Notes under the pieces: model-generated
The model's input: the letters and a program-made list of their open reading frames with translations, nothing else
The model's database searches: none
What the model was told of the DNA's origin: nothing
Part shown: in pieces, positions 9,829 through 63,886 of the stretch
Numbering within the stretch: the first letter of the stretch is position 1
Layout of the letters: each line of letters starts with the position of its first letter
Position numbers and translations under genes: made by a program
Assembly (NCBI GenBank): GCA_964610125.1
Contig: CAZSUV010000001.1
Span: 383,877 to 447,876, forward strand
DNA: 64,000 bases
Source: an uncultured Candidatus Saccharibacteria bacterium
GTDB lineage: Bacteria > Patescibacteriota > Dojkabacteria > SC72
Reading direction: 5' to 3'

Positions 9829-9943
9829 GTAAATATTTCTTTAAGTTAGATATACATTCATTTTAGATTCTTTCGATATGGAATGCAATATAAAAAGAAA
9901 CCCCTCCAAGTGAGGGGTTGTACATGCATGTATTGGTTTTAAA

Positions 9944-10138
9944 CTATTTCTCCTTAGCTACTTTTTTTGTAGCCTTCTTCTTAACAACCTTTTTGACAGT
10001 TGTTTTCTTTACAGCCTTTTTAGCAACTTTCTTTTTTGCTACCTTTTTTACAGCTTTCTTGACAACCTTCTTCTTCATTGTCTTCTTTGCTGCTGGCTTT
10101 TTAACAACTTTTTTCTTTGTTGTTTTAGCTTTGGGCAT
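9944..10138 (-). CDS. Lys/Ala-rich basic protein (histone H1/HC2-like nucleoid protein candidate)
   Basis: 64 aa composed almost entirely of K, A, V and T repeats (KKVVKKPAAKK...). The mirror + strand ORF is a Phe/Thr-rich shadow. Confidence 0.5.
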   Translation of the reverse strand: MPKAKTTKKKVVKKPAAKKTMKKKVVKKAVKKVAKKKVAKKAVKKTTVKKVVKKKATKKVAKEK

Positions 10139-10203
10139 TTTTGTAAAGGTAATAGATTAAATACTATTAATTTAACACTTGGGTAATGTTTGTCAATATA
10201 CTA

Positions 10204-23095: not shown

Positions 23096-24271
23096 ATGTC
23101 TAAAAAGAAAAAATATATCTTACTATTATTAATAACCTTAGTACTTGCTGCTGTTACAGCTAGTATATACATATTTGTTAATTCGAAGATAAATGGTTCT
23201 ACTATATATACAGTAGATAAATATTCAGATGTTACGAATAGGTGTGATACAAATTTAAAGGATGGAAAGTTATCAGTAGATTGTAAAGCCTTATTAATCA
23301 ACATTGACTCAAATAGTTGCTTTGAAGTGCAGCTCATTACCAAGGACAAAGAATTAAAAGATTTAACTGTTTGTGAGAAGAATGATACTCTTTCATATAC
23401 CAATGATGTATTAGGATACAAAAAGCTAATGCCTGTAGATATGGTATTTACATATACTAAGGAAGGAATACTAAGAGATTACTCATTTAACAACGTTTCG
23501 TTTACTAAGGTAGAAGATACATATGTGCAGAGTATTGTTAATGAAGACATTGCGAACCTAGTAACTTTAGATCCCAAATCAACAGCAATTGAGAATAGTG
23601 TAGATTTTTGTCCAAGACCTGAAACATTGCCAAGTTATATTACAGAAGTGAATAGAACTGCATATACAGAATATTTCAACAAGAATATAATGGCTAAGGA
23701 AAAATATTTCGATGGATATATGTACAACTGGGATGATAGTACCATACGGATATTGTTTGCTTGTGATAGTGCTAAAAATATGGGGTATACAGATGTATGT
23801 AATACTCAAAGATCACAGAATGATAAGAAGCAATCTGTTATCTTCCATGATGTCGATTTTAGCAATAAATTATCTAACTCCAAACTTAATGCTCAAGATA
23901 AATTATTGAAAACCGTGTCTTTAATATACGATAGTATGCACAAGGATATAGGAAACAATATAGTAGATGTAGGTTTGCTCGGTGATATCGTGCAAGAAAT
24001 CAATGCAACAGAAAAATTACAAGAAGAAGTTCTTTGGGGAATTTATAAAATTTATTTGGATTTAACAACATTAAATACATCATATCAGCAAAAATCTTAT
24101 TTTATCGAATCAATACTTAAATCTCAAGGCGATATGTTAACTTACTGCCCTGATGGTGGAGAATCACAATATCATAACGAGATAGGGAAATATTTTAGAT
24201 GCTCAATTGAAAATCAAACTACAATTTATCGTAGATGCAATAATTTAAGAAATTTTATATCTAATGAATAA
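23096..24271 (+). CDS. Cassette gene A1: N-terminally membrane-anchored, Cys-containing extracytoplasmic protein (paralog of 27061-28275)
   Basis: 391 aa with a basic N-terminus then a TM helix (YILLLLITLVLAAVTASIYIFV). At least 8 Cys are conserved with the paralog (NRCD, VDCK, NSCFEVQ, LTVCEKN, VDFCPRPETLPSYITE, LFACDS...DVC). The last codons overlap the B1 start (ATGAATAAG). Confidence 0.7.
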   Translation: MSKKKKYILLLLITLVLAAVTASIYIFVNSKINGSTIYTVDKYSDVTNRCDTNLKDGKLSVDCKALLINIDSNSCFEVQLITKDKELKDLTVCEKNDTLSYTNDVLGYKKLMPVDMVFTYTKEGILRDYSFNNVSFTKVEDTYVQSIVNEDIANLVTLDPKSTAIENSVDFCPRPETLPSYITEVNRTAYTEYFNKNIMAKEKYFDGYMYNWDDSTIRILFACDSAKNMGYTDVCNTQRSQNDKKQSVIFHDVDFSNKLSNSKLNAQDKLLKTVSLIYDSMHKDIGNNIVDVGLLGDIVQEINATEKLQEEVLWGIYKIYLDLTTLNTSYQQKSYFIESILKSQGDMLTYCPDGGESQYHNEIGKYFRCSIENQTTIYRRCNNLRNFISNE

Positions 24272-27053
24272 GTTCATCCTATTACTGATTATCATTGCCA
24301 TTGTTACTTTCCTGCCGTTTAAATTAGAAGCTGCAGATTGCTCCAATGCTCGTGCGGGAGGAAGCGGGTTAACCTGTAGCGTTAGTGGTATACAAAGTTA
24401 CTGTGCCTCTGGAACAACTTTTTGTGATTGTGCACGGTATGGAACAGCACAACAGATTCACTGTACCCAAGGTGCATACTATTATGGACTTTGCGTATTT
24501 AGCTCAGGCCCAGAAGTTGCAAGCTGGGGATATTGCACACGGAATGTAGATGCTACATATCCTAACGGTGGAACATGTACTTGTTGTACTCCAATCTCTT
24601 GTTCCTGTACCCCCTCATGCCCAGCAGGCGCCTCTACAACATACTCAGGCCCTCTATGTGCTGCAGGAAACGCAAGTTGTTCTCAATCAAATTCCTGTTC
24701 CTCATGTACAAGTACTGGGAGCGCCTGCTACTATCCAGAAACCAACACCACCTTCATCCAATCTAACGGCTCAACTTCAGGCCCAACCTCTGTAAATATG
24801 GTTGTAGATGGTAAAACATATATCCTTTCTACAGACCCAAACAACCCAACCCATATCAAACTCCCAGCTTTAGGTTCTTCTAATGTACAGATAACCACAC
24901 CAACATTCACAGCCCCTGTAACCTCTAGAGGAGCCAATTACTACTACCAAGCCAATAACTATGGAAGTAGCAATGAATGGAAAACATGGACAACATGCTC
25001 AGGCATAGCAGGAGAAGACTTCTGTACTACAATGCCAAATTCAAACAATACTCAAAGCTTTGTACCAACATCTAAAACAGTAAACCAAGTATTAAAGGAA
25101 GGAGCTACTGGAGAAATATCCGCAATGTATGCCACTACAGACAAATGTAACAATACATACAAATATTCATTGCCTATCAAAGGTTACTACATTGTTGATA
25201 CCCTCCCAGATTCACAACCTAATGAAGGAGGCAGTGAAATAGTTAACCCCGAAGATCTTTTCTCAGACATAGGTTTGAATACTACAGCAAATGGTTGTTC
25301 TTCTTTAACATACTCTGGTGTAGAAGCTAACAACGAATTACATATAAAAGCGGACGTTACAGATATCGATGACCTGAACGAAATACAAGCTCTAACCCTT
25401 TGGTTTACAAAAGATACAAACGTTCCTACAACAGAAACAATCTCAGCCTCATATACAGGAAGTATAACTGAGGACCTTGGAATTATGATTAAAAAGAATG
25501 GAGGCGATTGGAGCAATCCAACTATATATGCTACAAATGCAAACCTAAGCTGGGGAGAAATATCACTAACTGATGGGAAAGGATATATAAATGTAGCAGG
25601 TTCTAACATTATCGAAATATATGATATATCAGTCACCCAGGATCTCAATGCAACCTTCGACTACAAGATAAAGTTTTTGAGAAACGCTTCAACCCTTTCT
25701 GGTATGTACAATGTCTACGGAGGCTCACTCGATACATACATGATTAATGGGAACATTATCGATCAAAGTTATTTTGTTAAATTTTTTGATTGGGGAGTAG
25801 ATCTTGAAAACCCTACAGTAGAAGATATAACTCAACAAATTAGAGACTCACAAAATACCTACATAATTTGGGGAAATGCCGATAGCATTAGTGGGATAGC
25901 ACAAACTGTCATTAACGCCTATAGATTGGGTGGAGTATCAACTGACCCAGAGGGGGTTAAATTATATCTTCCAGCCGCATATACAATATTGAAAGGCGCA
26001 ATAACGTTGGATCCTAATGCAAGTATTCCTGATACTATAAACATTGGTAGATACAATGATACAAACGCATGGGTATTTAGCAACAATACTGGAGAACAAG
26101 ATTTAATAAATATTGGAAATAACGAAAGTGGTCAAATCGCTTTATACATAACAGCATATGACAAAGCATGTAACATGAGCGGAAATAGCGCAGATATAGA
26201 TTTAAATCCATGGTTTGCATCAAGAGGGGCAACTGTATATTCTAAGGGCAATATCTCAACAACAACAAAAGATGTTTTAAATTTACCATCACTCAATGGA
26301 GTATTTAACCCAAAGACAGGAATGAACACAACTCTCATTGATCTTGGAAGTGAATTACTTGCGACAAGAAACATCTCTATCTCAAATATAATTCATCCCT
26401 CAAGTGGAGCAGTTTTAGCAACAGAAGTAGAGGATTCAAATAATACTAAAGGAAACTGGTACGCACATCTTCTTGAGAAATTTAATAGATACAAGTCCGA
26501 GCTAACACCATTTGCTAAAGTCGTAACGGACGATTCAGTGTCAGATAGTTGCACCGGTAAGAATTGCTATATGTATTCAATTGAAGACATTACAATTCCG
26601 CAGGGGTATACCTGTGACCGAAGTACATTATTCATTACAGAAGGAAATATACATATAAATCCTGATGTAAATAGTGATAACAATTTGTTAAGTGGTTGTA
26701 TATTTCTAGCAAAGAATAATATTTATATAGAAGCCGGAAGATTTAAATCAACAGGGACAAAAATCTTATATGATTATATAGAGGGTTATATGATTGCAGA
26801 TAATCAAATTATCTTTACAGTGGCAGATGAATCTCGCGCATTGAGAGATGGCGTTGAAATTTTCGGTGGAATGGTAGGGCTAGCAACAAGTGATAACAAA
26901 GGAATATTAATACAACGCAATCTAAGATTATATAGTCAAATAAATCCAACCGTAGTATTAACATATGACACAAAATACCCAAGCATCTCAACTATATTCT
27001 TTGGAACAGAATACAGTTTGTATAAACAAGAAGTTGGGTTCAAAACATTTTAA
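24264..27053 (+). CDS. Cassette gene B1: large secreted protein with an extremely Cys/Ser/Thr-rich N-terminal domain and an Asn/Thr-rich beta-rich body (paralog of 28278-31031)
   Basis: 929 aa with a cleavable signal peptide (FKLEA-ADCS). About 20 Cys in the first ~150 residues (TCTCCTPISCSCTPSCPAG...CSQSNSCSSCTSTGSACYYPETN). The body is conserved with the paralog (IDGKTY.LST.PNNPT, PTFTAP.TSRG, CSGIAGEDFCTT, KYSLPI.GYY..DTLP, LTYD.KY). The protein ends ...YKQEVGFKTF. Confidence 0.75.
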   Translation: MNKFILLLIIIAIVTFLPFKLEAADCSNARAGGSGLTCSVSGIQSYCASGTTFCDCARYGTAQQIHCTQGAYYYGLCVFSSGPEVASWGYCTRNVDATYPNGGTCTCCTPISCSCTPSCPAGASTTYSGPLCAAGNASCSQSNSCSSCTSTGSACYYPETNTTFIQSNGSTSGPTSVNMVVDGKTYILSTDPNNPTHIKLPALGSSNVQITTPTFTAPVTSRGANYYYQANNYGSSNEWKTWTTCSGIAGEDFCTTMPNSNNTQSFVPTSKTVNQVLKEGATGEISAMYATTDKCNNTYKYSLPIKGYYIVDTLPDSQPNEGGSEIVNPEDLFSDIGLNTTANGCSSLTYSGVEANNELHIKADVTDIDDLNEIQALTLWFTKDTNVPTTETISASYTGSITEDLGIMIKKNGGDWSNPTIYATNANLSWGEISLTDGKGYINVAGSNIIEIYDISVTQDLNATFDYKIKFLRNASTLSGMYNVYGGSLDTYMINGNIIDQSYFVKFFDWGVDLENPTVEDITQQIRDSQNTYIIWGNADSISGIAQTVINAYRLGGVSTDPEGVKLYLPAAYTILKGAITLDPNASIPDTINIGRYNDTNAWVFSNNTGEQDLINIGNNESGQIALYITAYDKACNMSGNSADIDLNPWFASRGATVYSKGNISTTTKDVLNLPSLNGVFNPKTGMNTTLIDLGSELLATRNISISNIIHPSSGAVLATEVEDSNNTKGNWYAHLLEKFNRYKSELTPFAKVVTDDSVSDSCTGKNCYMYSIEDITIPQGYTCDRSTLFITEGNIHINPDVNSDNNLLSGCIFLAKNNIYIEAGRFKSTGTKILYDYIEGYMIADNQIIFTVADESRALRDGVEIFGGMVGLATSDNKGILIQRNLRLYSQINPTVVLTYDTKYPSISTIFFGTEYSLYKQEVGFKTF

Positions 27054-27060
27054 ATAAATA

Positions 27061-28275
27061 ATGAGAAAAACTTCTACAAAAACAAAATACATATTAATGC
27101 TCCTATCCTTTCTTTTTATCGTTTCTTTAGGCACAGGGATATTTTTTTTGTTAAAACAAAAAACGTTGAAAATATTCGAGAAGAGGATTAATAGATATTC
27201 AGAGGTGTTTGATTGGTGTAACCATACTTTAAATGATAATAAATTAGATATTAATTGTTCTGGATTATTAAAAGATATTAAAGTCACAGAAAATAAAGAA
27301 ACATGCTTTGAAATACAGGTAATCGCCCAGGACAAGCAACTAAAGGATATGACTGTTTGTGAAAATGAAGATAATTATGTATATACCAACGATGTATTGG
27401 AGTTTAAAAGATTGATGCCAGTTAGTATAGTATTTGCTTATACAAATGAAGGGGTATTAGGTGAATATCAATTAAATAAAGTTTCATTCTCTAAAAAAGA
27501 TAATACGTATATACAGAACATTATCAATGAAGATATTGCGAATCTCGTTACAATAGATCTAAGTACCACAACGATACAAAATAGTGTAGATTTTTGTCCT
27601 CAATTAGAGACATTGCCAAGTTATATTACAGAGGCTAATAAAAATGCATATTCCGAATATCTCAATAAGAATACTCTTACGGAAGACAAATACATAGATC
27701 CTCTATTATATAGTTGGGATGATACTATCATACGGTTACTATACGCGTGTGATTCTTCAAAAAATATGGGATACAAAGGGGTATGCAGTGATAAAAAAAT
27801 TAACAATCTGTCTTTAATGTCAACTGAAATAAACCATATCTATGCTACTCCAGTTTGGAATAATACATTGAATAATAAAAACAAAATGCTTCTGAAGGAG
27901 ATTTCGCTTCTATATGACAATATGTATTCTATCAATATACCCAATAGCTTGGTAAATCTAAGTTTAATGAAAGACCTAGTTGATACTGTGAACACAGACT
28001 CAAACCTTAATGGGGAAATATTATGTGGAATATATAAGATTTATAGTGGACTAGCAACCCAAGATAGCAAATATATTTCTGATAGAAATACCCTCCGAGA
28101 TTTGTTTTCTTCAGACTTATCAAATACTTCGACATGCACAGATATTATTCCCGATCTTAATTTGAACAAAGATACAAATGGAATATATATAGAAAGATAT
28201 TACTCAAATCTCCAACCTGACCTATTAACAATATATTCAAGATGTCAAAACCTAACTAACATTGTATTATATTAA
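27061..28275 (+). CDS. Cassette gene A2: membrane-anchored Cys-containing protein (paralog of A1)
   Basis: 404 aa, alignable with A1 over its full length with the same N-terminal anchor and conserved Cys positions. Stop lies 2 nt before the B2 start. Confidence 0.7.
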   Translation: MRKTSTKTKYILMLLSFLFIVSLGTGIFFLLKQKTLKIFEKRINRYSEVFDWCNHTLNDNKLDINCSGLLKDIKVTENKETCFEIQVIAQDKQLKDMTVCENEDNYVYTNDVLEFKRLMPVSIVFAYTNEGVLGEYQLNKVSFSKKDNTYIQNIINEDIANLVTIDLSTTTIQNSVDFCPQLETLPSYITEANKNAYSEYLNKNTLTEDKYIDPLLYSWDDTIIRLLYACDSSKNMGYKGVCSDKKINNLSLMSTEINHIYATPVWNNTLNNKNKMLLKEISLLYDNMYSINIPNSLVNLSLMKDLVDTVNTDSNLNGEILCGIYKIYSGLATQDSKYISDRNTLRDLFSSDLSNTSTCTDIIPDLNLNKDTNGIYIERYYSNLQPDLLTIYSRCQNLTNIVLY

Positions 28276-28277
28276 GT

Positions 28278-31031
28278 ATGAAAAAATTGTTTTTAATGAT
28301 TCTAACTTTGGCGATACTATTCTTCTCAAGATTTGAAACAGTTTTTGCATATACATATACTACATGCACTGGTGGAAGTACTTCATGTTCCTGCACTTCA
28401 GGTTCAATAGATTGCCCATGTCCTGATGGTACATGCTACATCACCTGTAACCAGAGAACATGTAGTGACTGTACAAAACAGGGATGTTGGGTAAATGGAG
28501 GCGGAATTACTTGCTATAATATAGGCACATGTACTTGCACTAGCAGCGCAGGAGGCACAAGATATCCTAACGGCTCTTCAGTTTCTTGCTGTAGTCAGAT
28601 TAATTGTAACTGTACACCAACATGTACAGCAGGTGCGTCAACTACGGTGACAGGAAGCCTATGTAGTGCTGGAACATCTAGTTGTTCACAATCAAATTCT
28701 TGTTCCTCATGTACTAGTACAGGAGCAGCTTGTTATTATCCTGAAACGAATGTAATCCCACCAACACCAAATACAATAAGCATGATTATTGATGGTAAAA
28801 CATACCAACTTTCTACCAATCCCAATAATCCAACCAAATTGAAACTTCCAAAGCTTGGAGCCTCAAATGTACAAATTACAGTTCCAACTTTTACAGCACC
28901 AGCTACATCAAGAGGTGGAGGCTATTATTTTACAGCCAACAATTATGGAATCAATGATGAATGGCGAACCTGGGTATCTTGCTCTGGTATAGCGGGTGAA
29001 GATTTCTGTACAACGGTACCAAACACAAACAATACTCAAAGTTTCGTCCCTACCTCTAAGACAATAAATCAAGTACTTAAGGAGGGAGCAACTGGAAAGA
29101 TTTCAGGAATGTATACAACTACTGATAAATGTGGCAATACATATAAATACTCTCTTCCAATAGAGGGTTACTACCTCATAGATACATTACCCCATGTCTC
29201 TCCATCACCAGATTCACCAACAAACAACACAACCATTATTGATCCTCAAGACTTAGTTCCAAGTATAGGAACAGACATTACTACAAATGCATGCCAATCC
29301 TCTACATACACAGGAAGTGAGATTAATAATCCACTTCATATTATTGCCCAAACCTCGGACACTAATACAAATGACGAAATCCAATCCTTTACCATTTGGT
29401 TAAGTCAAGATTCTTCAATTCCGACAACAACAACAATAACTTCATCATACACAGGAAGTACAAATACTGATTTGGGAATAATGATAAAGAAGAATGGCAC
29501 AGATTGGACAAATCCTTCTCTCTATGGCACAAATTCTTCATTAGATTTTGGACAAATTACTGATGGATATATAAAAATTAATAACGAAAATATAATTAGG
29601 ATATATGATCTTTCAGTAACACAAGACACAAATATAATATTTGATTACAAACTTGAATTCTTAAATAATTCAAATACTATATCAGCTCTATACCATATTT
29701 ATGGAGGAGCACTAGACACAAATATGTTTAATGACGCAACTATCGATCAAAGCTATTTTGCAAAATTTTTTGATTGGAATATTGATTTAGTAAACCCAAT
29801 CCTTGACAATATTGTTCAACAAATCCAAAATCCAACAAATACAAATCTAACTTGGTCTGTAACCGATTCTCAAAGTGGTATAGGACGCACTGTCATTAAT
29901 GGGTATCGAACTGGAGGAATAGAAACAGATACCGCAACTCTTTTTGATAAAAATAATACTAATAAGGGAGCATTGAATTTAGTGGCAAAACCACTTGATA
30001 ATGCAATAGGATTATATACAGACACAAATGCATGGATTTTTGATAATAATGCTGGAGAAACCGATCGCCTAAACATTGGTACTAACGAAGGAGGCGCTAT
30101 CGATATATATGTAACAGCATACGATAACGCATGCAATTCAACAAGTACAAGTGAAAAAATAGATTTAGACCCTTGGTTTGCCACACGAGGAGGGGCAGTA
30201 TATTCCGAGAACAATATTTCAAAAGCTCCAAAGGATGTATCGCAAGTATCAAGCCTAGATAACGTCTTCAATTCAAGAACATTGATGACGAAAAGTCTAA
30301 TAGATCTTGGAACTGAACTATTAGCTACAAGAAACACAAATATCTCGGTTCTTATTCACTCTAATAGTGGAGCTGCTAAGGCTATCCTAGCGTACGATTC
30401 AAATAATATTAAATTATATTGGTTCAACACATTGTTGGAGAAATTTAATATATTAGCGAATAAATCTTCACAATTTTCCTCTTTGACTACGCGTACTTCT
30501 ATTGATTGTACAGGGGAAACTTCATGCTATATGCATTCCACAGCCCCAACTGAAGACATACATATTCCAAAAGGTTATCAATGTGATAGACCTACCTTAT
30601 TTATATCAGAAGGAAATATTTACATTGAACCTAATATTACCAGCGATATTACAAAAGCAACGGGTTGTATATTTATAGCAAAGAATAATATATATATTGG
30701 CGCTGGAGATTATCAATCTACTGGAAGTGTAATAGAATATGATTATATAGAAGGTTTCTTAATTGCTGAAAACCAGGTAATTTTCTCTCCTGTAGATACT
30801 AATCAAACCTTACGTGATGGAATAGAAATGTTTGGTGGAATTGTGGCATTTGGATCAAATTCATTACAAGAGGGAAATGCGATTTCGATAGAGCGAAATA
30901 TGCGTTTATTCAATCAAACCAATCCCACTATAGTTTTGACATATGATAATAAATATTCATATCTTTCTACTTTTTTCTTTGGTACAGAAGCTACAATATA
31001 TAAGCAAGAAGTTGGCTTTAAATCTTTTTAG
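28278..31031 (+). CDS. Cassette gene B2: large secreted Cys-rich-N-terminus protein (paralog of B1)
   Basis: 917 aa with a signal peptide (ETVFA-YTYT) and a Cys-rich N-terminal domain sharing CSQSNSCSSCTSTGAACYYPETN with B1. Alignable with B1 over its full length. Ends ...YKQEVGFKSF. Confidence 0.75.
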   Translation: MKKLFLMILTLAILFFSRFETVFAYTYTTCTGGSTSCSCTSGSIDCPCPDGTCYITCNQRTCSDCTKQGCWVNGGGITCYNIGTCTCTSSAGGTRYPNGSSVSCCSQINCNCTPTCTAGASTTVTGSLCSAGTSSCSQSNSCSSCTSTGAACYYPETNVIPPTPNTISMIIDGKTYQLSTNPNNPTKLKLPKLGASNVQITVPTFTAPATSRGGGYYFTANNYGINDEWRTWVSCSGIAGEDFCTTVPNTNNTQSFVPTSKTINQVLKEGATGKISGMYTTTDKCGNTYKYSLPIEGYYLIDTLPHVSPSPDSPTNNTTIIDPQDLVPSIGTDITTNACQSSTYTGSEINNPLHIIAQTSDTNTNDEIQSFTIWLSQDSSIPTTTTITSSYTGSTNTDLGIMIKKNGTDWTNPSLYGTNSSLDFGQITDGYIKINNENIIRIYDLSVTQDTNIIFDYKLEFLNNSNTISALYHIYGGALDTNMFNDATIDQSYFAKFFDWNIDLVNPILDNIVQQIQNPTNTNLTWSVTDSQSGIGRTVINGYRTGGIETDTATLFDKNNTNKGALNLVAKPLDNAIGLYTDTNAWIFDNNAGETDRLNIGTNEGGAIDIYVTAYDNACNSTSTSEKIDLDPWFATRGGAVYSENNISKAPKDVSQVSSLDNVFNSRTLMTKSLIDLGTELLATRNTNISVLIHSNSGAAKAILAYDSNNIKLYWFNTLLEKFNILANKSSQFSSLTTRTSIDCTGETSCYMHSTAPTEDIHIPKGYQCDRPTLFISEGNIYIEPNITSDITKATGCIFIAKNNIYIGAGDYQSTGSVIEYDYIEGFLIAENQVIFSPVDTNQTLRDGIEMFGGIVAFGSNSLQEGNAISIERNMRLFNQTNPTIVLTYDNKYSYLSTFFFGTEATIYKQEVGFKSF

Positions 31032-40448: not shown

Positions 40449-40889
40449 TTAATACAAAGTATGAACCCCGTTTTTGTATTCGTTATAAACCTCTTTACAT
40501 GCTTCTGTTTCTAAAGGCATCTCTACATATTCATCCTTACTATTCCCTTGCTCTTCAGCAAACCCTATATCCTTCGCATCATTGTAATCACAACCATAAT
40601 ATACTTTGGATAGCTTTGCCCACATGATAGCGGCTTTACACATAGGACAAGGCTGACCAGTAACATATAGCTCACATCCCGAGAGATCAAAATTTCTAAG
40701 TTTCTTCGATGCAATCTGAATAGCTCTAATTTCAGCATGATTCGTAGCGTCCTTTCTTCTCACAACCTCGTTATGTGCCTTTGCTACAATCTTGCCATCT
40801 TTTACAATCACACATCCAAATGGTCCACCATGCTTGTGATTAATACCATATCTAGCTTCATCAATTGCAACCTTCATAAATTCATTCAT
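40449..40889 (-). CDS. CDA-fold zinc deaminase (TadA/GuaD-like)
   Basis: HAEIRAI (H-A-E zinc/catalytic motif) and PCPMC zinc ligands. 146 aa. Confidence 0.7.
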   Translation of the reverse strand: MNEFMKVAIDEARYGINHKHGGPFGCVIVKDGKIVAKAHNEVVRRKDATNHAEIRAIQIASKKLRNFDLSGCELYVTGQPCPMCKAAIMWAKLSKVYYGCDYNDAKDIGFAEEQGNSKDEYVEMPLETEACKEVYNEYKNGVHTLY

Positions 40890-41740
40890 TAGAATTTTCT
40901 ACCAAAATTAATATCTTCTACCATAAGTTTCTTACCTGTTCTCCCTAAATCTTGCTCATACCTATGTGCAAAATCTCTGTACTCAAGTATCTTTTTAGTC
41001 CTTTCCTTAACACTACGCTCTCCAATCATCCCAGGTCCACCAATACAACCACCTTCACAAGTCAAAATATCCAAAAATTTATAATTCTTGTACATACCAT
41101 CTTTAAATTCAGAAAGTACCTTTACTATATTCTCTACACCATCAGTAACAAGAATGTCTTTCTCTTCCAATATGTTTTTGTAATGAAGAGTAGAGGATAG
41201 CCCACCAGAGATAGGGTAGATCTTGGTATAGTCATTGTAAAATTTTTCAAAGGTCACACAATATTTTGAATCTGTAACCTTCTCCGGAATGTTATGTAAT
41301 TTGAAGAGTTCATTTAATTCTTTAAATGTTAAAGCCTCATCAATAGTTCCAAGTTCCTGTGCTTCATTCTTTTTAGTAATACATGGGCCAACAAATACTC
41401 GTTTGTAATCTGGGTAGTATTTCTTACATATGAGAGCCATAGCGCCCATAGGAGAGAGGACTGGAACAAGATTTGGAATTAATTCTGGAAATTTTACCTT
41501 AATCATATTAACCAGTGTAGGGCATGGAGATGCTATCCACGTTTTCTTTTCTCCCTTTTCTAAACTTTCTTTTAGTAATTCGTAGTAAGCAATATTCACC
41601 ATCTTAGCTCCAAATGTAAGCTCTAAGACTTCATTAAATCCTAACTGCCTTAATCTGTAAACTATTTCTGGATATTCAAATTCAGCTGCAAACGAGGGTG
41701 CTAACATACATAGATATTTTTGTCCTTGTACAAATTCCAT
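40889..41740 (-). CDS. [FeFe]-hydrogenase-like protein, H-domain only
   Basis: Fe_hyd_lg_C-like N-terminus (APSFAAEF...LGFNEVLELTFGA). L1 motif reads ASPCP instead of TSCCP. L2 GPCITKKNEAQE. L3 TCEGGCIGGPGM. 283 aa, no ferredoxin-like F-domains. Shares the ATGA start/stop overlap with the deaminase gene. Confidence 0.55.
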   Translation of the reverse strand: MEFVQGQKYLCMLAPSFAAEFEYPEIVYRLRQLGFNEVLELTFGAKMVNIAYYELLKESLEKGEKKTWIASPCPTLVNMIKVKFPELIPNLVPVLSPMGAMALICKKYYPDYKRVFVGPCITKKNEAQELGTIDEALTFKELNELFKLHNIPEKVTDSKYCVTFEKFYNDYTKIYPISGGLSSTLHYKNILEEKDILVTDGVENIVKVLSEFKDGMYKNYKFLDILTCEGGCIGGPGMIGERSVKERTKKILEYRDFAHRYEQDLGRTGKKLMVEDINFGRKF

Positions 41741-60324: not shown

Positions 60325-60642
60325 CTAAGGAAGTGGGTATGGATCAGGATCTTCCGTAATGTTATAGATTTTGTCGCATAATGCGGCCAAAATTGTCTCA
60401 TCCGGAATCCCAACAGGAAAATGGATATCATCTCGACGGCGATCTTCCTTTTTATTTGTTTCCAGAAGATATGTACCTTCGAGCTTCAATGCATTTAATT
60501 CCTTCTTTTCCTTTGTTCCCACAGCTACAGAGTGTTTCTCTGGGTATAAATGGACTTGGCCCACCCATAACCGTTTTCCGTTCACATCAAAGATCATTAA
60601 CTTGATTGGATCGTACATTGAAACCTCCTCATATACCAACAA
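60325..60642 (-). CDS. Hypothetical small protein
   Basis: 105 aa with balanced composition. Preferred over the overlapping, Ser/Phe-rich + strand extension. Confidence 0.35.
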   Translation of the reverse strand: MLVYEEVSMYDPIKLMIFDVNGKRLWVGQVHLYPEKHSVAVGTKEKKELNALKLEGTYLLETNKKEDRRRDDIHFPVGIPDETILAALCDKIYNITEDPDPYPLP

Positions 60643-60727: not shown

Positions 60728-61777
60728 ATGAAAAAGAAATGGATTATTATCTTTGCCATATCATTACCCATCTTAGTATTCCTCATAACCTTCGCATTAT
60801 TTGAACTTTCAAAACGATATCTTGCTAACAAAATTAACTGTTTAGACCAACAAACACTAAATATTCCCTCAGATATATCCCCCTTAACTCAAGACCTATG
60901 CCTTGTAGAATATTCAACTGCAAAGAATAGTATCCATATGGAATTTAAATTAAACAACGATTTCCAATCAAAGTTAGTCACCGAAGAATGGACCCAATCA
61001 GACAGTGATACCTACAAAAAAGGAAAGTACAGTCTAAACCTCTCAGGTACCGTTATCTCCATAGTTGAAGAAACAACTGAAGTAGGAGCTATAAAGGAAA
61101 ATGACACTTCCATACCAGAGCTTGTGCATACAGCTGAAGTCATACGCCCAGGCTACCAAGTAACATCAAAGGAGATATCAAGAATAAATACCACAAACAA
61201 AGTAGTTGTATTTACATTTGATGGAGGGTCTGGAATTCAATCAATGGATTCCATACTTAGTACATTAGCAAAATACAATTTAACAAGTACGTTCTTCTTA
61301 ACAGGTAAATGGGCTGAAGCTAATGTAAATGATGTAAAACGTATAAATAATGCAGGACATGAAATATTCAATCATTCATATTCACACCCAGACTTCGCTA
61401 CCATTTCTGATACACAGATAGCAGAAGAATTTTCCAAAACAGATGCCATTATTAGTGATATAACAGGATATCATACGAAACCATTCTTTAGACCACCATA
61501 TGGATCTAGAAATACACATATACGAGAGTATGCAGCTTCTCTGGGCTACCAAGATGTATATTGGACTATAGATGCTCTAGATTGGAAAGAATCCACAGGA
61601 ACCACTGCAGAGACTGTAAAAAGTAGGATATTGGATAACCTCGCGCCCGGCAATATCTACCTTATGCATATTGGAGACAATCTAACAGGGCAAGTGTTAG
61701 ATGAAGTAATACAGGAAATACAGAATAGAGGATATACAATAATGAGCCTGTATCAAGCAATCACTTTATATCCATAA
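60728..61777 (+). CDS. Polysaccharide deacetylase (CE4/NodB domain) with N-terminal TM anchor
   Basis: Start at internal Met (MKKKWIIIFAISLPILVFL). NodB motifs FTFDGG, HSYSHP, RPPYG, LMH. Confidence 0.75.
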   Translation: MKKKWIIIFAISLPILVFLITFALFELSKRYLANKINCLDQQTLNIPSDISPLTQDLCLVEYSTAKNSIHMEFKLNNDFQSKLVTEEWTQSDSDTYKKGKYSLNLSGTVISIVEETTEVGAIKENDTSIPELVHTAEVIRPGYQVTSKEISRINTTNKVVVFTFDGGSGIQSMDSILSTLAKYNLTSTFFLTGKWAEANVNDVKRINNAGHEIFNHSYSHPDFATISDTQIAEEFSKTDAIISDITGYHTKPFFRPPYGSRNTHIREYAASLGYQDVYWTIDALDWKESTGTTAETVKSRILDNLAPGNIYLMHIGDNLTGQVLDEVIQEIQNRGYTIMSLYQAITLYP

Positions 61778-61841
61778 TCATCCATTGCATCACTTCACTT
61801 AATTATATATATTTTAATATATTAAATTTATCTTCTGTCCT

Positions 61842-62603
61842 ATGGATAAATACAAAAACCTCCGTATATTTAACATAGTAATGGGATTCTTCCACTTTGT
61901 ACAAGGAATACTCATGGTAGTACTAAGTAATGACTTCACATTACCAATCAATACAAGCTACCTAAAGTTTGATGTAACAACCCTTACACTACAACCATCC
62001 CTAAACCATATATATGATCTAAAGGTAGGGTATGCAATTGCAGCATTCCTCTTCCTTTCATCATTAGCACATTTCATCATCTCCCTTCCTAGGGTATATG
62101 AATGGTATGTAGCAAACCTAAAGAAGGGTATTAACTATGCTAGATGGATAGAATATGCATTTAGTTCATCCATAATGATTGTTGTAGTATCAATGTTAGT
62201 AGGGGTATATGATTTTAGTACGCTCTTGTTGATCTTCTTCCTCAATGCAATGATGATTCTCTTTGGAATGGTTATGGAAATACACAATCAAACAACAACC
62301 AAAACAAACTGGATATCATTCATCTTTGGATGTATAGCAGGAATAGTTCCATGGGTAGTAGTAGCATTGTACCTCTTTGGTTCTGGAGATGCAGATAACA
62401 AAGCTCCAACCTTTGTATATTGGATCTTCTTTAGTATATTCCTCTTCTTTAATACATTTGCAGGTAACATGATCCTACAATATGGAAAGATTGGAAAATG
62501 GAAGAACTATACATTTGGAGAAAAAGTATATGTCATCTTAAGCTTAGTAGCTAAATCATTACTTGCATGGCAGGTATTTGCTGGAACACTAAGACCTGTA
62601 TAG
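61842..62603 (+). CDS. Heliorhodopsin
   Basis: 253 aa, 7 TM helices. LSNDFTLP, ARWIEYAFSSSIMIV (counterion Glu), FGCIAGIVPW and YVILSLVAKSLLAWQVFAGTL (Schiff-base Lys) match heliorhodopsin signatures as I recall them. Confidence 0.8.
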   Translation: MDKYKNLRIFNIVMGFFHFVQGILMVVLSNDFTLPINTSYLKFDVTTLTLQPSLNHIYDLKVGYAIAAFLFLSSLAHFIISLPRVYEWYVANLKKGINYARWIEYAFSSSIMIVVVSMLVGVYDFSTLLLIFFLNAMMILFGMVMEIHNQTTTKTNWISFIFGCIAGIVPWVVVALYLFGSGDADNKAPTFVYWIFFSIFLFFNTFAGNMILQYGKIGKWKNYTFGEKVYVILSLVAKSLLAWQVFAGTLRPV

Positions 62604-62614
62604 AATAGAGAAAT

Positions 62615-63886
62615 ATGTCAAAAAATAAAAGAATACTAGATTTAATACCAAAACAGTTCTCGCGTAATACTTTTGTATATTTTTTGATACCTCTCTTTTT
62701 AATACTCCTTGGGGATGGAATAGTTGCCTATATATTTCCATTAATCCTAGGAAATCATATAAGCTCCAATTTAGTAATTGGATTGATTATGTCGGCTTCT
62801 TCTGTAATTGGAATCGCCTGTGATTTTCTAATTCCATTAGTATTCCCCAAATATGGTTGGAAATTTCAACTTATCACTGGAATTATTCTAGCCCTAACAT
62901 TTCCATTAACCACAGCCATTGGAGATACATTTTCAATCGTATGGATGTTCTTAATAGCATCACTCTTGTGGGGTATTTACTATGAATTTATAATGTTTGC
63001 TCAACAGAGTTTCATTGTAGAAGAAGAAAATCAGAAACACTATTCTCATGATTGGAGTATCGTAGAGATTTTAACCAATATCGTAGAAGTTTCTGCACCA
63101 ATCATTGGTGCCTTCATTTTAATACGAGGAATAGTTGCATATACATCGACCACATTAGTTATTGAGATTCTAGCTCTCATATTTGCAGTTCTTTTAGTCA
63201 TAGTAAAACGAGATGTTAAAACACAAAGACCAAAGAGCCAGATTAAGGAATATATTAGCTTCTTTAGAGAGTTAAAATCTTGGAAGATACTTTCAAAAAA
63301 GGTATATATCATACTAATAATGGCTGTGATAGTGGAAATAGTTTCCGCTGGCTTCTTAACATTCGCAGGATTGTATGGAGAACAGTTGATAGCCAATCCC
63401 GATTGGAATTGGGTATTAATCACGTTAGCAACTATTCCATACATGTTTGGATCACTCATTATCTATAGATTAAATCTAAAGAAAGGAAAGAAAAGGCTTT
63501 CGCAACTTTCAATCTTGGCTTCAGGAATTGTCCTTTCGTTGCTCTTCTTTTTTGGAGGCAAACTCATTCCAATATTGATAATAATTTTCATCTCAAATCT
63601 CATAATGTCTTTGTGTTGGCCATTAGATGATGCAATATTCAGTGATTTACAAAAACGATTAGGAAAACACGGCCTACATCTAATTGGATTATCCCAAGCA
63701 AGCTATTCCATAGCATATATTGTTGCACCTACATTAATGGGATTCTTTGCGGATAGGGTGGGATACAATAATTCATTTGCAATAATTGGAGTAATAGCAG
63801 CAGTAATTGGCTTGATTCTTTTAATTATAACCCCCAGAAAGTTAAGAATGCCTCACAAAGAATTAGATAATATAGTTACTTCTTAA
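62615..63886 (+). CDS. MFS-like polytopic membrane transporter (tentative)
   Basis: 423 aa with about 12 predicted TM helices in two halves separated by a basic loop (KRDVKTQRPKSQIKEY). Confidence 0.45.
   Translation: MSKNKRILDLIPKQFSRNTFVYFLIPLFLILLGDGIVAYIFPLILGNHISSNLVIGLIMSASSVIGIACDFLIPLVFPKYGWKFQLITGIILALTFPLTTAIGDTFSIVWMFLIASLLWGIYYEFIMFAQQSFIVEEENQKHYSHDWSIVEILTNIVEVSAPIIGAFILIRGIVAYTSTTLVIEILALIFAVLLVIVKRDVKTQRPKSQIKEYISFFRELKSWKILSKKVYIILIMAVIVEIVSAGFLTFAGLYGEQLIANPDWNWVLITLATIPYMFGSLIIYRLNLKKGKKRLSQLSILASGIVLSLLFFFGGKLIPILIIIFISNLIMSLCWPLDDAIFSDLQKRLGKHGLHLIGLSQASYSIAYIVAPTLMGFFADRVGYNNSFAIIGVIAAVIGLILLIITPRKLRMPHKELDNIVTS

Follow-up and report, generated by a model that had tools for sequence, protein, structure and literature searches.

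Where would a heliorhodopsin (HeR) obtain its chromophore, and what would it do with light, in a fermenting bacterium that belongs to the candidate phyla radiation (CPR)? Others have asked about the chromophore source before, with regard to HeRs as a whole (Chazan et al. preprint) and with regard to the rhodopsins of CPR bacteria (Jaffe et al. 2022). Here it arises from a stretch of 64,000 nucleotides (nt) of contig CAZSUV010000001.1, hereafter the window, which carries a gene for a membrane protein of 253 residues. We find that the product of this gene is a genuine heliorhodopsin, from a member of Candidatus Dojkabacteria (WS6, CPR/Patescibacteria). The overall best explanation, to which we assign a probability of about 0.8, is that this heliorhodopsin would act as a slow photosensor, most likely with a scavenged chromophore.

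A heliorhodopsin with intact chromophore and fenestration residues

The initial annotation had assigned the open reading frame (ORF) to the heliorhodopsins on account of three motifs in its 253 residues. All three can be located in the protein (residues 101-105 for RWIEY, 162-171 for FGCIAGIVPW and 234-244 for SLVAKSLLAWQ), and the two family profiles match over their full length. Pfam PF18761 Heliorhodopsin scored 336.8 bits (E=8.4e-101, profile positions 1-242/242) at a cut-off of 26.7 bits, while the NCBIfam equivalog NF038020 'heliorhodopsin HeR' scored 346.8 bits (E=6.5e-104, profile positions 1-244/244) at a cut-off of 100 bits. Against solved structures in the PDB, the protein gave full-length sequence matches with an E-value of 3e-76 for TaHeR and of 4e-63 for 48C12. 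The type-1 profile PF01036 Bac_rhodopsin gave no match to the protein at E <= 0.01, and the motif in transmembrane helix (TM) 7 is SxxxK, as opposed to the DxxxK of type-1 microbial rhodopsins. The gene and the positions discussed below are as follows.

61842..62603, + strand: HeR coding sequence, ATG start, TAG stop, 253 residues, seven TM helices, N-terminus predicted inside
62151..62153, + strand: codon of E104, the predicted Schiff-base counterion in TM3 (RWIEY), by alignment to E107 of 48C12 and E108 of TaHeR
62319..62354, + strand: TM5 segment F160-W171 (FIFGCIAGIVPW) with the fenestration residues F160, C164 and G167, mapped onto 48C12
62448-62462, + strand: fenestration partners F203, N204 and A207 in TM6, mapped onto 48C12 positions
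62553..62555, + strand: K238 codon, for the lysine predicted to form the Schiff base with retinal in TM7 (S234-x-x-x-K238), by alignment to K241 of 48C12 and K238 of TaHeR

The alignment bears out the two functional residues that had been named beforehand, the glutamate of RWIEY as the counterion and the lysine of SLVAK as the Schiff-base lysine, and places them in TM3 and TM7, respectively. The histidine pair H18/H77 aligns column for column with H23/H80 of 48C12, and the two glutamates of the cytoplasmic cavity are kept as E146 and E227. E104, K238, H18, H77, E146 and E227 are invariant across 20 relatives with 66-97% identity.

The lateral fenestration, which is also the carotenoid-binding site, is formed by positions 162, 166, 169, 206, 207 and 210 of 48C12, with opposing aromatic residues at 162 and 206, small residues at 166 and 210, a glycine at 169 and an asparagine at 207 (Kornilov et al. 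2025 preprint). At the level of the sequence alignment, the window HeR has the corresponding kind of residue at all six positions, namely the aromatic F160 and F203, the small C164 and A207, G167 and N204. C164 is nearly invariant among the relatives, while G167, F203, N204 and A207 are invariant. Because these residues agree with every feature of the fenestration in the alignment with TaHeR and 48C12, FGCIAGIVPW, which had been listed as a family hallmark, appears to be in part the retinal-entry window itself.

The AlphaFold2 model shows seven TM helices, a short helix in the BC loop and a beta-hairpin in the AB loop, with a predicted local distance difference test (pLDDT) score of 77 and a predicted template modelling score of 0.74. 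The top 10 PDB matches in Foldseek are all HeRs (template modelling score 0.74-0.82, E <= 2.6e-15), with scores of 0.80 for TaHeR and 0.74-0.78 for 48C12. For the best type-1 rhodopsin, an E-value of 6.6e-3, a score of at most 0.58 and an identity of 9-16% were obtained. Hence, the protein sides with the heliorhodopsins and not with the type-1 rhodopsins, by sequence and by fold. With the N-terminus inside, 12 lysine and arginine residues are located on the predicted cytoplasmic loops and 4 outside; this charge distribution is consistent with the inverted topology, in which the N-terminus is cytoplasmic and the C-terminus faces outside.

The best solved relative is TaHeR from Thermoplasmatales archaeon SG8-52-1 (PDB 6IS6, 7U55, 7CLJ), with 51% identity. 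Both proteins have the counterion glutamate, the lysine motif SLVAK, the histidine pair, the fenestration segment FGCIAG and a C-terminal GTLRP. The window HeR differs in its host, a CPR bacterium instead of an archaeon, in a TM5-TM6 loop that is 4 residues longer (GSGDADNK), and in having F160 in place of Y164 and I103 in place of a phenylalanine. The identity to 48C12, the founding actinobacterial HeR (PDB 6SU3/6SU4/6UH3/9LJJ), is lower, at 45-46%. E107, K241, H23 and H80 of 48C12 correspond to E104, K238, H18 and H77, and the fenestration residues are identical in kind, whereas length differences of 1-2 residues are seen in the AB loop and in the TM5-6 loop. Compared with seven relatives, the ratio of nonsynonymous to synonymous substitution (dN/dS) is 0.035-0.095. 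The gene is under strong purifying selection.

Chromophore source and proposed function

The window had been described as free of carotenoid and retinal biosynthesis genes, and this agrees with our Pfam scan: the 56 window ORFs, 15 of which have no Pfam match at all, yielded neither Blh/BCD nor any phytoene synthase, phytoene desaturase or lycopene cyclase. In total, the search for chromophore genes covered 64 kb of the genome and ~10 kb of flanking sequence. A FAD-dependent protein encoded past the window end was considered as a carotenoid enzyme and rejected, as its faint Lycopene_cycl match is confined to positions 1-36/380, which hold the dinucleotide-binding (Rossmann) motif only.

To our knowledge, CPR bacteria generally have no retinal or carotenoid pathway. 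Since none is visible here either, the chromophore is most likely scavenged: retinal, possibly together with a xanthophyll antenna, would be taken up from neighbouring or host cells. CPR bacteria are regarded as lacking an outer membrane, and the scavenged chromophore would enter through the TM5/TM6 fenestration, which would face the outer leaflet of such a cell. The fenestration has been proposed to bind exogenous xanthophylls too, in monoderms (Kornilov et al. 2025 preprint). More generally, blh is rare near HeRs, and its genome-wide co-occurrence with them is mostly found where another rhodopsin is present (Chazan et al. preprint).

A similar situation has been described for the SacR type-1 rhodopsins, which are likewise found in CPR fermenters without blh, and for which uptake of retinal from hosts or neighbours via an opening in the apoprotein has been proposed (Jaffe et al. 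2022, PMC9296517). In the same study, rhodopsin-bearing Saccharibacteria lacked blh, and their rhodopsins took up external retinal within 30 s, comparable to heliorhodopsin/TaHeR with its small opening. The SacRs themselves are outward proton pumps of type 1 with a DTS motif and normal topology, whereas the window protein is a heliorhodopsin without a Bac_rhodopsin match.

By analogy with its homologues, the window HeR would bind all-trans-retinal covalently at K238, absorb green light at about 550 nm and pass through a seconds-long photocycle, during which no net ion transport would occur while the Schiff-base proton moves to the E104/His group. It would thus serve as a slow photosensor, the cytoplasmic face of which would modulate one or more partner proteins. 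This role is drawn from the slow photocycles of the homologues 48C12, TaHeR and Cv06, which do not transport ions and have a long-lived O-state.

Some points weigh against this explanation. For retinal binding, spectrum, photocycle and the lack of transport alike, the assignment is carried over from homologues with an identity of 45-51% in structure-based alignments. The confidence of the AlphaFold2 model is moderate, with a pLDDT of 77 overall and of 56-70 in TM6-TM7; the fenestration was therefore assessed from the sequence only. A HeR with 97% identity has been assigned to 'candidate division WS6 bacterium GW2011_GWC1_36_11', and as we take the GW2011 names to denote groundwater metagenome-assembled genomes (MAGs), the light exposure of the lineage is in question. 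Finally, a retinal pathway may be located elsewhere in the genome, or it may be a non-canonical one as reported for Aurantimicrobium (Chazan et al. preprint).

Neighbouring genes and the pairing with a transporter

The surroundings of the HeR gene were compared with those in 94 loci (L001-L094). All ORFs of these loci were searched with phmmer and with a profile hidden Markov model (HMM) built from 33 sequences of the neighbouring major facilitator superfamily (MFS) transporter, and intermediate relatives were looked up in addition. In the window, the HeR gene is flanked by the following features.

60728..61777, + strand: membrane-anchored CE4 polysaccharide deacetylase of the peptidoglycan type (PF01522, 117 bits; most likely extent, with the start taken from the gene call on the identical contig L001)
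61778..61841, + strand: AT-rich spacer of 64 nt that precedes HeR, a weakly supported candidate for the HeR promoter with a single sigma-70-like match (61794-61823)
62604..62614, + strand: purine-rich HeR-MFS spacer of 11 nt (AATAGAGAAAT), from the sequence and a terminator scan
62615..63886, + strand: MFS_1 transporter of 423 residues (Pfam MFS_1, 93 bits), facultative downstream neighbour of HeR

These are the neighbours named in the initial annotation, a CE4 deacetylase upstream and an MFS-like transporter 12 bp downstream; the latter figure is right as a distance, since the ATG of the MFS gene lies 12 positions past the last base of the stop codon, with 11 nt in between. The CE4 protein is similar to the NCBIfam models of PdaA, PdaB and PgdA, with scores below their cut-offs. 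A CE4 gene is found upstream of HeR in L084 too, with 50% identity over 206 residues. The length of the 64-nt upstream spacer is kept in L001-L003, and 63 nt separate CE4 and HeR in L084. Promoter-like matches in the region upstream of HeR are fewer than in its shuffled versions, which leaves the promoter and terminator scan uninformative. Between the DEAD-box helicase gene and the CE4 gene, a small ORF of 97-105 residues (60325-60642, - strand) has no Pfam match; it is called as a gene on L001.

The terminator scan found no terminator-like site between HeR and MFS. Given the 11-nt spacer without a terminator, the two genes are likely co-transcribed, and the MFS gene would therefore be transcribed from within or upstream of HeR. 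No relative of the MFS transporter in the PDB was found by sequence that could point to its substrate, and all scores against NCBIfam subfamilies are far below the cut-offs. The family is small, with only 35 relatives found, and its named members are all from Dojkabacteria. Weak precomputed signals of BT1 (folate/biopterin transporter) on relatives are the only hint to a substrate. Across the compared loci, the two genes are distributed as follows, with identities given relative to the window proteins.

HeR followed by MFS: L001-L005 (HeR at least 92%, gap of 11 nt), from the ORF search
HeR followed by MFS: L091 (HeR 82%, MFS 66%, gap of 6 nt), from the ORF search
HeR without MFS: L084/L085 (HeR 82%), with CE4 upstream and a convergent PMT_2 gene directly downstream
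HeR without MFS: L086-L090 (HeR 75-78%), with unrelated neighbours, HeR apparently monocistronic
HeR without MFS: 78 other species-level loci
MFS without HeR: L092 (MFS 69%), with the wider synteny kept (radical-SAM, RimK, DEAD helicase ... IscS-NifU-MnmA)
MFS without HeR: L093 and L094

A homologue of the MFS transporter adjoins HeR in two of the 80 species-representative HeR loci (L004 and L005), by phmmer or by the profile HMM. No remnants of the missing HeR or MFS gene were found by tblastn in any unpaired locus. In HGW-Dojkabacteria-1, HeR (CVU76_02455) and an MFS gene with 48% identity (CVU76_03255) are ~160 genes apart, as judged from the locus tags. A conserved HeR-MFS operon was rejected, because the pairing occurs in six loci only and the unpaired loci hold no remnants. 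The MFS gene is a facultative, genus-level neighbour of HeR, and the pairing is recent and optional.

In three of the loci without MFS (L086 5759-6127, L089 5759-6133 and L090 4006-4380, all - strand; HeR 75-78%), a convergent ORF of 122-124 residues overlaps the stop codon of HeR by 4 nt. It has no Pfam match and is absent from the window.

It is conceivable, but in our view unlikely, that in this Dojkabacteria genus HeR came to share an operon with an MFS transporter specific to the lineage, and gates it by light. The two would then form a dedicated light-regulated module similar to OcHeR-OmrDE, in which the lit HeR would bind the MFS protein in the membrane and alter its transport rate. An even more speculative version is that the MFS transporter imports the retinal or xanthophyll needed by HeR. 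The arrangement in the window fits such a module, as both genes are on the same strand, separated by 11 nt without a terminator, so that MFS would be transcribed through or from within HeR. The pair also recurs in six loci from two sublineages (11 nt in L001-L005, 6 nt in L091), and both genes are under purifying selection. There is a precedent for an HeR that regulates an operon-encoded transporter (Cho et al. 2024, PMC11109279): the genes of OcHeR and of the window HeR each have a membrane transporter gene of the same strand directly beside them, with probable co-transcription. However, OmrDE is an ABC multidrug exporter that is up-regulated by OcHeR (PMC11109279), while the window transporter is a secondary carrier of the MFS type. 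In addition, the adjacency of HeR and MFS is confined to a narrow clade and dispensable in both directions: L084/L085 lack MFS and any remnant of it, L092 lacks HeR and any HeR remnant, and L093/L094 have MFS alone. The distance of ~160 genes in HGW-Dojkabacteria-1 and the presence of MFS next door in only 2 of 80 species-level HeR loci argue in the same direction, as does the absence of MFS from the ten recurrent classes of HeR operons (Cho et al. 2024, PMC11109279). Transporters of the MFS and ABC types do recur in the neighbourhood of HeRs, which speaks for a module, yet MFS is named there only as a generic theme that is shared with proton-pump rhodopsins (Chazan et al. preprint). We regard a dedicated module as unlikely because the association is narrow and can be dispensed with in sister lineages. 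If true, light gating of the MFS protein by HeR would be the first case of a secondary transporter regulated by a rhodopsin. As an output partner of HeR, the probably co-transcribed MFS transporter is a weak candidate only.

Throughout the compared loci, HeR is mostly a stand-alone gene without a conserved operon partner. This argues that the signalling partner of the proposed photosensor is not encoded next door. None of the published HeR partner classes was found in the window by Pfam scans, in which 15 ORFs had no match. The classes sought were glutamine synthetase, photolyase, NAD synthetase, MerR, TerC, ABC transporter and SDR, as well as alpha/beta hydrolase, DUF2177, DUF2238, DegV, DUF1295, glutaredoxin and peroxidase. 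Three of these families, DUF1295, DUF2177 and DegV, are systematically associated with HeRs (Chazan et al. preprint). A DUF1295 gene, of which there is none in the window, is located ~2 kb upstream of HeR in HGW-Dojkabacteria-1 (L087/L088 2057-2839, - strand).

The MFS gene is constrained like HeR, yet it shows ~2-4x more amino-acid change. Relative to L004, which represents the sister species, the nucleotide identity is 91-94% for HeR, 90-96% for IscS/NifU, ~81% for MFS and 61-69% for PMT_2, and the synonymous divergence (pS) is 0.27 for HeR and 0.59 for MFS. The low pS raised the question of a recent recombination or transfer of HeR, which was rejected since the identity varies from 61% to 96% gene by gene and HeR is in the range of the Fe-S assembly genes IscS/NifU. 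HeR is among the most constrained genes of a fast-evolving, envelope-related segment.

The low identity of PMT_2 concerns a glycosyltransferase gene that is convergent with MFS and located past the window end (L001 9044-12617, equivalent to ~63900-67400 of the window); its flanks are 80-96% identical to L004. Between the DEAD helicase and IscS-NifU-MnmA, the relatives differ in which of the genes for CE4, HeR, MFS, PMT_2, GT2 and the FAD protein they possess, and the segment resembles a hypervariable island of envelope genes.

Remaining alternatives, host lineage and relevance

HeR might instead be a light-harvesting or ion-transporting rhodopsin that yields energy, either through proton transport as in some viral HeRs or as a 'two-antenna' carotenoid device. 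An extra source of energy would be valuable to a fermenter, and all six residues of the fenestration and carotenoid-binding site are present. Moreover, 91% of HeRs have been argued to be carotenoid-binding proteins (Kornilov et al. 2025 preprint), and, according to papers that cite the work, proton transport was shown for viral HeRs. However, no ion transport was found in any characterised close cellular HeR (48C12, TaHeR and Cv06), and in structure the window protein comes nearest to TaHeR and 48C12 and not to a transporter. It is the transporting viral subfamily that lacks the carotenoid-binding site, which the window HeR has (Kornilov et al. 2025 preprint), and an antenna carotenoid alone gives no energy without transport. 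We therefore consider a role in energy conversion very unlikely.

Equally improbable is a light-independent role as a structural or enzymatic membrane protein, or the persistence of the gene as a drifting passenger in an aphotic organism: near-identical genes do carry the GW2011 names, presumably of groundwater MAGs, an enzymatic role of the cytoplasmic cavity of HeRs has been speculated upon in the literature, and the gene is part of a segment with variable envelope genes that is bounded by the conserved DEAD helicase and the block of IscS/NifU/MnmA, but the dN/dS of 0.035-0.095 rules out drift, and if retinal were not bound, the invariant or nearly invariant Schiff-base lysine, counterion and fenestration residues would be difficult to account for. 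Among the close relatives, one is from a MAG with Loclat in its name (L004), which presumably refers to a lake. Others are from freshwater CPR MAGs (Chiriac et al. 2022, PMC9166423).

The host had been described as a fermentative bacterium with a small genome, in line with both its relatives and its genes. HeR relatives with 69-76% identity carry the name Candidatus Dojkabacteria or that of the Patescibacteria group, and the window, which has a G+C content of 34%, encodes NrdD/NrdG/NrdR, both subunits of a 2-oxoacid:ferredoxin oxidoreductase, an acyl-CoA synthetase of the ADP-forming type and a domain of the Fe-hydrogenase type. No respiratory genes were detected within the window. The hydrogenase-type protein (40889-41740, - strand, 283 residues) consists solely of the C-terminal domain of the large subunit of Fe-only hydrogenases (PF02906, 153 bits); it lacks the ferredoxin-like domains that are usually found at the N-terminus, and may be a truncated or a Nar1/HydA-like stand-alone H-cluster domain.

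Two further regions of the window stand out. At 23096-31031 (+ strand), two paralogous two-gene modules are arranged in tandem, encoding proteins of 391 and 929 residues followed by proteins of 404 and 917 residues. The identity between the paralogues is 43% for the small and 53% for the large proteins, all begin with a hydrophobic signal or anchor, and the large ones are rich in cysteine (28 and 32 residues). None of the four has a Pfam match; they may act at the surface or in the adhesion of this episymbiont-type bacterium. At ~9944-10138 (- strand), an extremely lysine-rich protein of 64 residues (MPKAKTTKKKVVKKPAAKK...) is encoded, which is similar to histone H1-like nucleoid proteins, while the low-complexity ORF on the + strand at 9918-10160 (FFLTTFL...) is probably spurious.

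Three of the compared loci (L007, L009 and L068) carry HeRs with 58-67% identity to the window protein on MAG contigs labelled 'uncultured Gammaproteobacteria bacterium', which, if right, would contradict a distribution of HeRs in monoderms only. At 39-44%, their G+C content is similar to the values of the Patescibacteria loci, and the same source labels L005, which is syntenic with Dojkabacteria, as Saccharibacteria. The label is likely due to mislabelling or mis-binning.

HeRs from CPR bacteria have been catalogued before, with 98 in CPR genomes, 7 of them in Dojkabacteria, and with SLVAK as the commonest motif (Chiriac et al. 2022, PMC9166423). The window HeR shares lineage, family and motif with the catalogued Dojkabacteria/CPR proteins and shows no substantive difference from them. 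An identical protein is already present in an NCBI-sourced record, where its contig measures up to 454 kb, and relatives are annotated as 'heliorhodopsin HeR [Candidatus Dojkabacteria bacterium]'. The occurrence of HeR in Dojkabacteria, the missing blh and scavenging through the fenestration are thus known themes. Gene neighbourhoods of the Dojkabacteria HeRs are not discussed in the census of Chiriac et al. 2022 (PMC9166423), and the sole, modest addition made here is that a single narrow clade of Dojkabacteria shows a facultative pairing of HeR with MFS. The window HeR is a clean and well-constrained example from a CPR fermenter, in which every chromophore and fenestration residue is intact. 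With variants that have HeR and MFS, HeR only or MFS only, this narrow clade would provide a convenient comparative system for the question of whether heliorhodopsins regulate neighbouring transporters.

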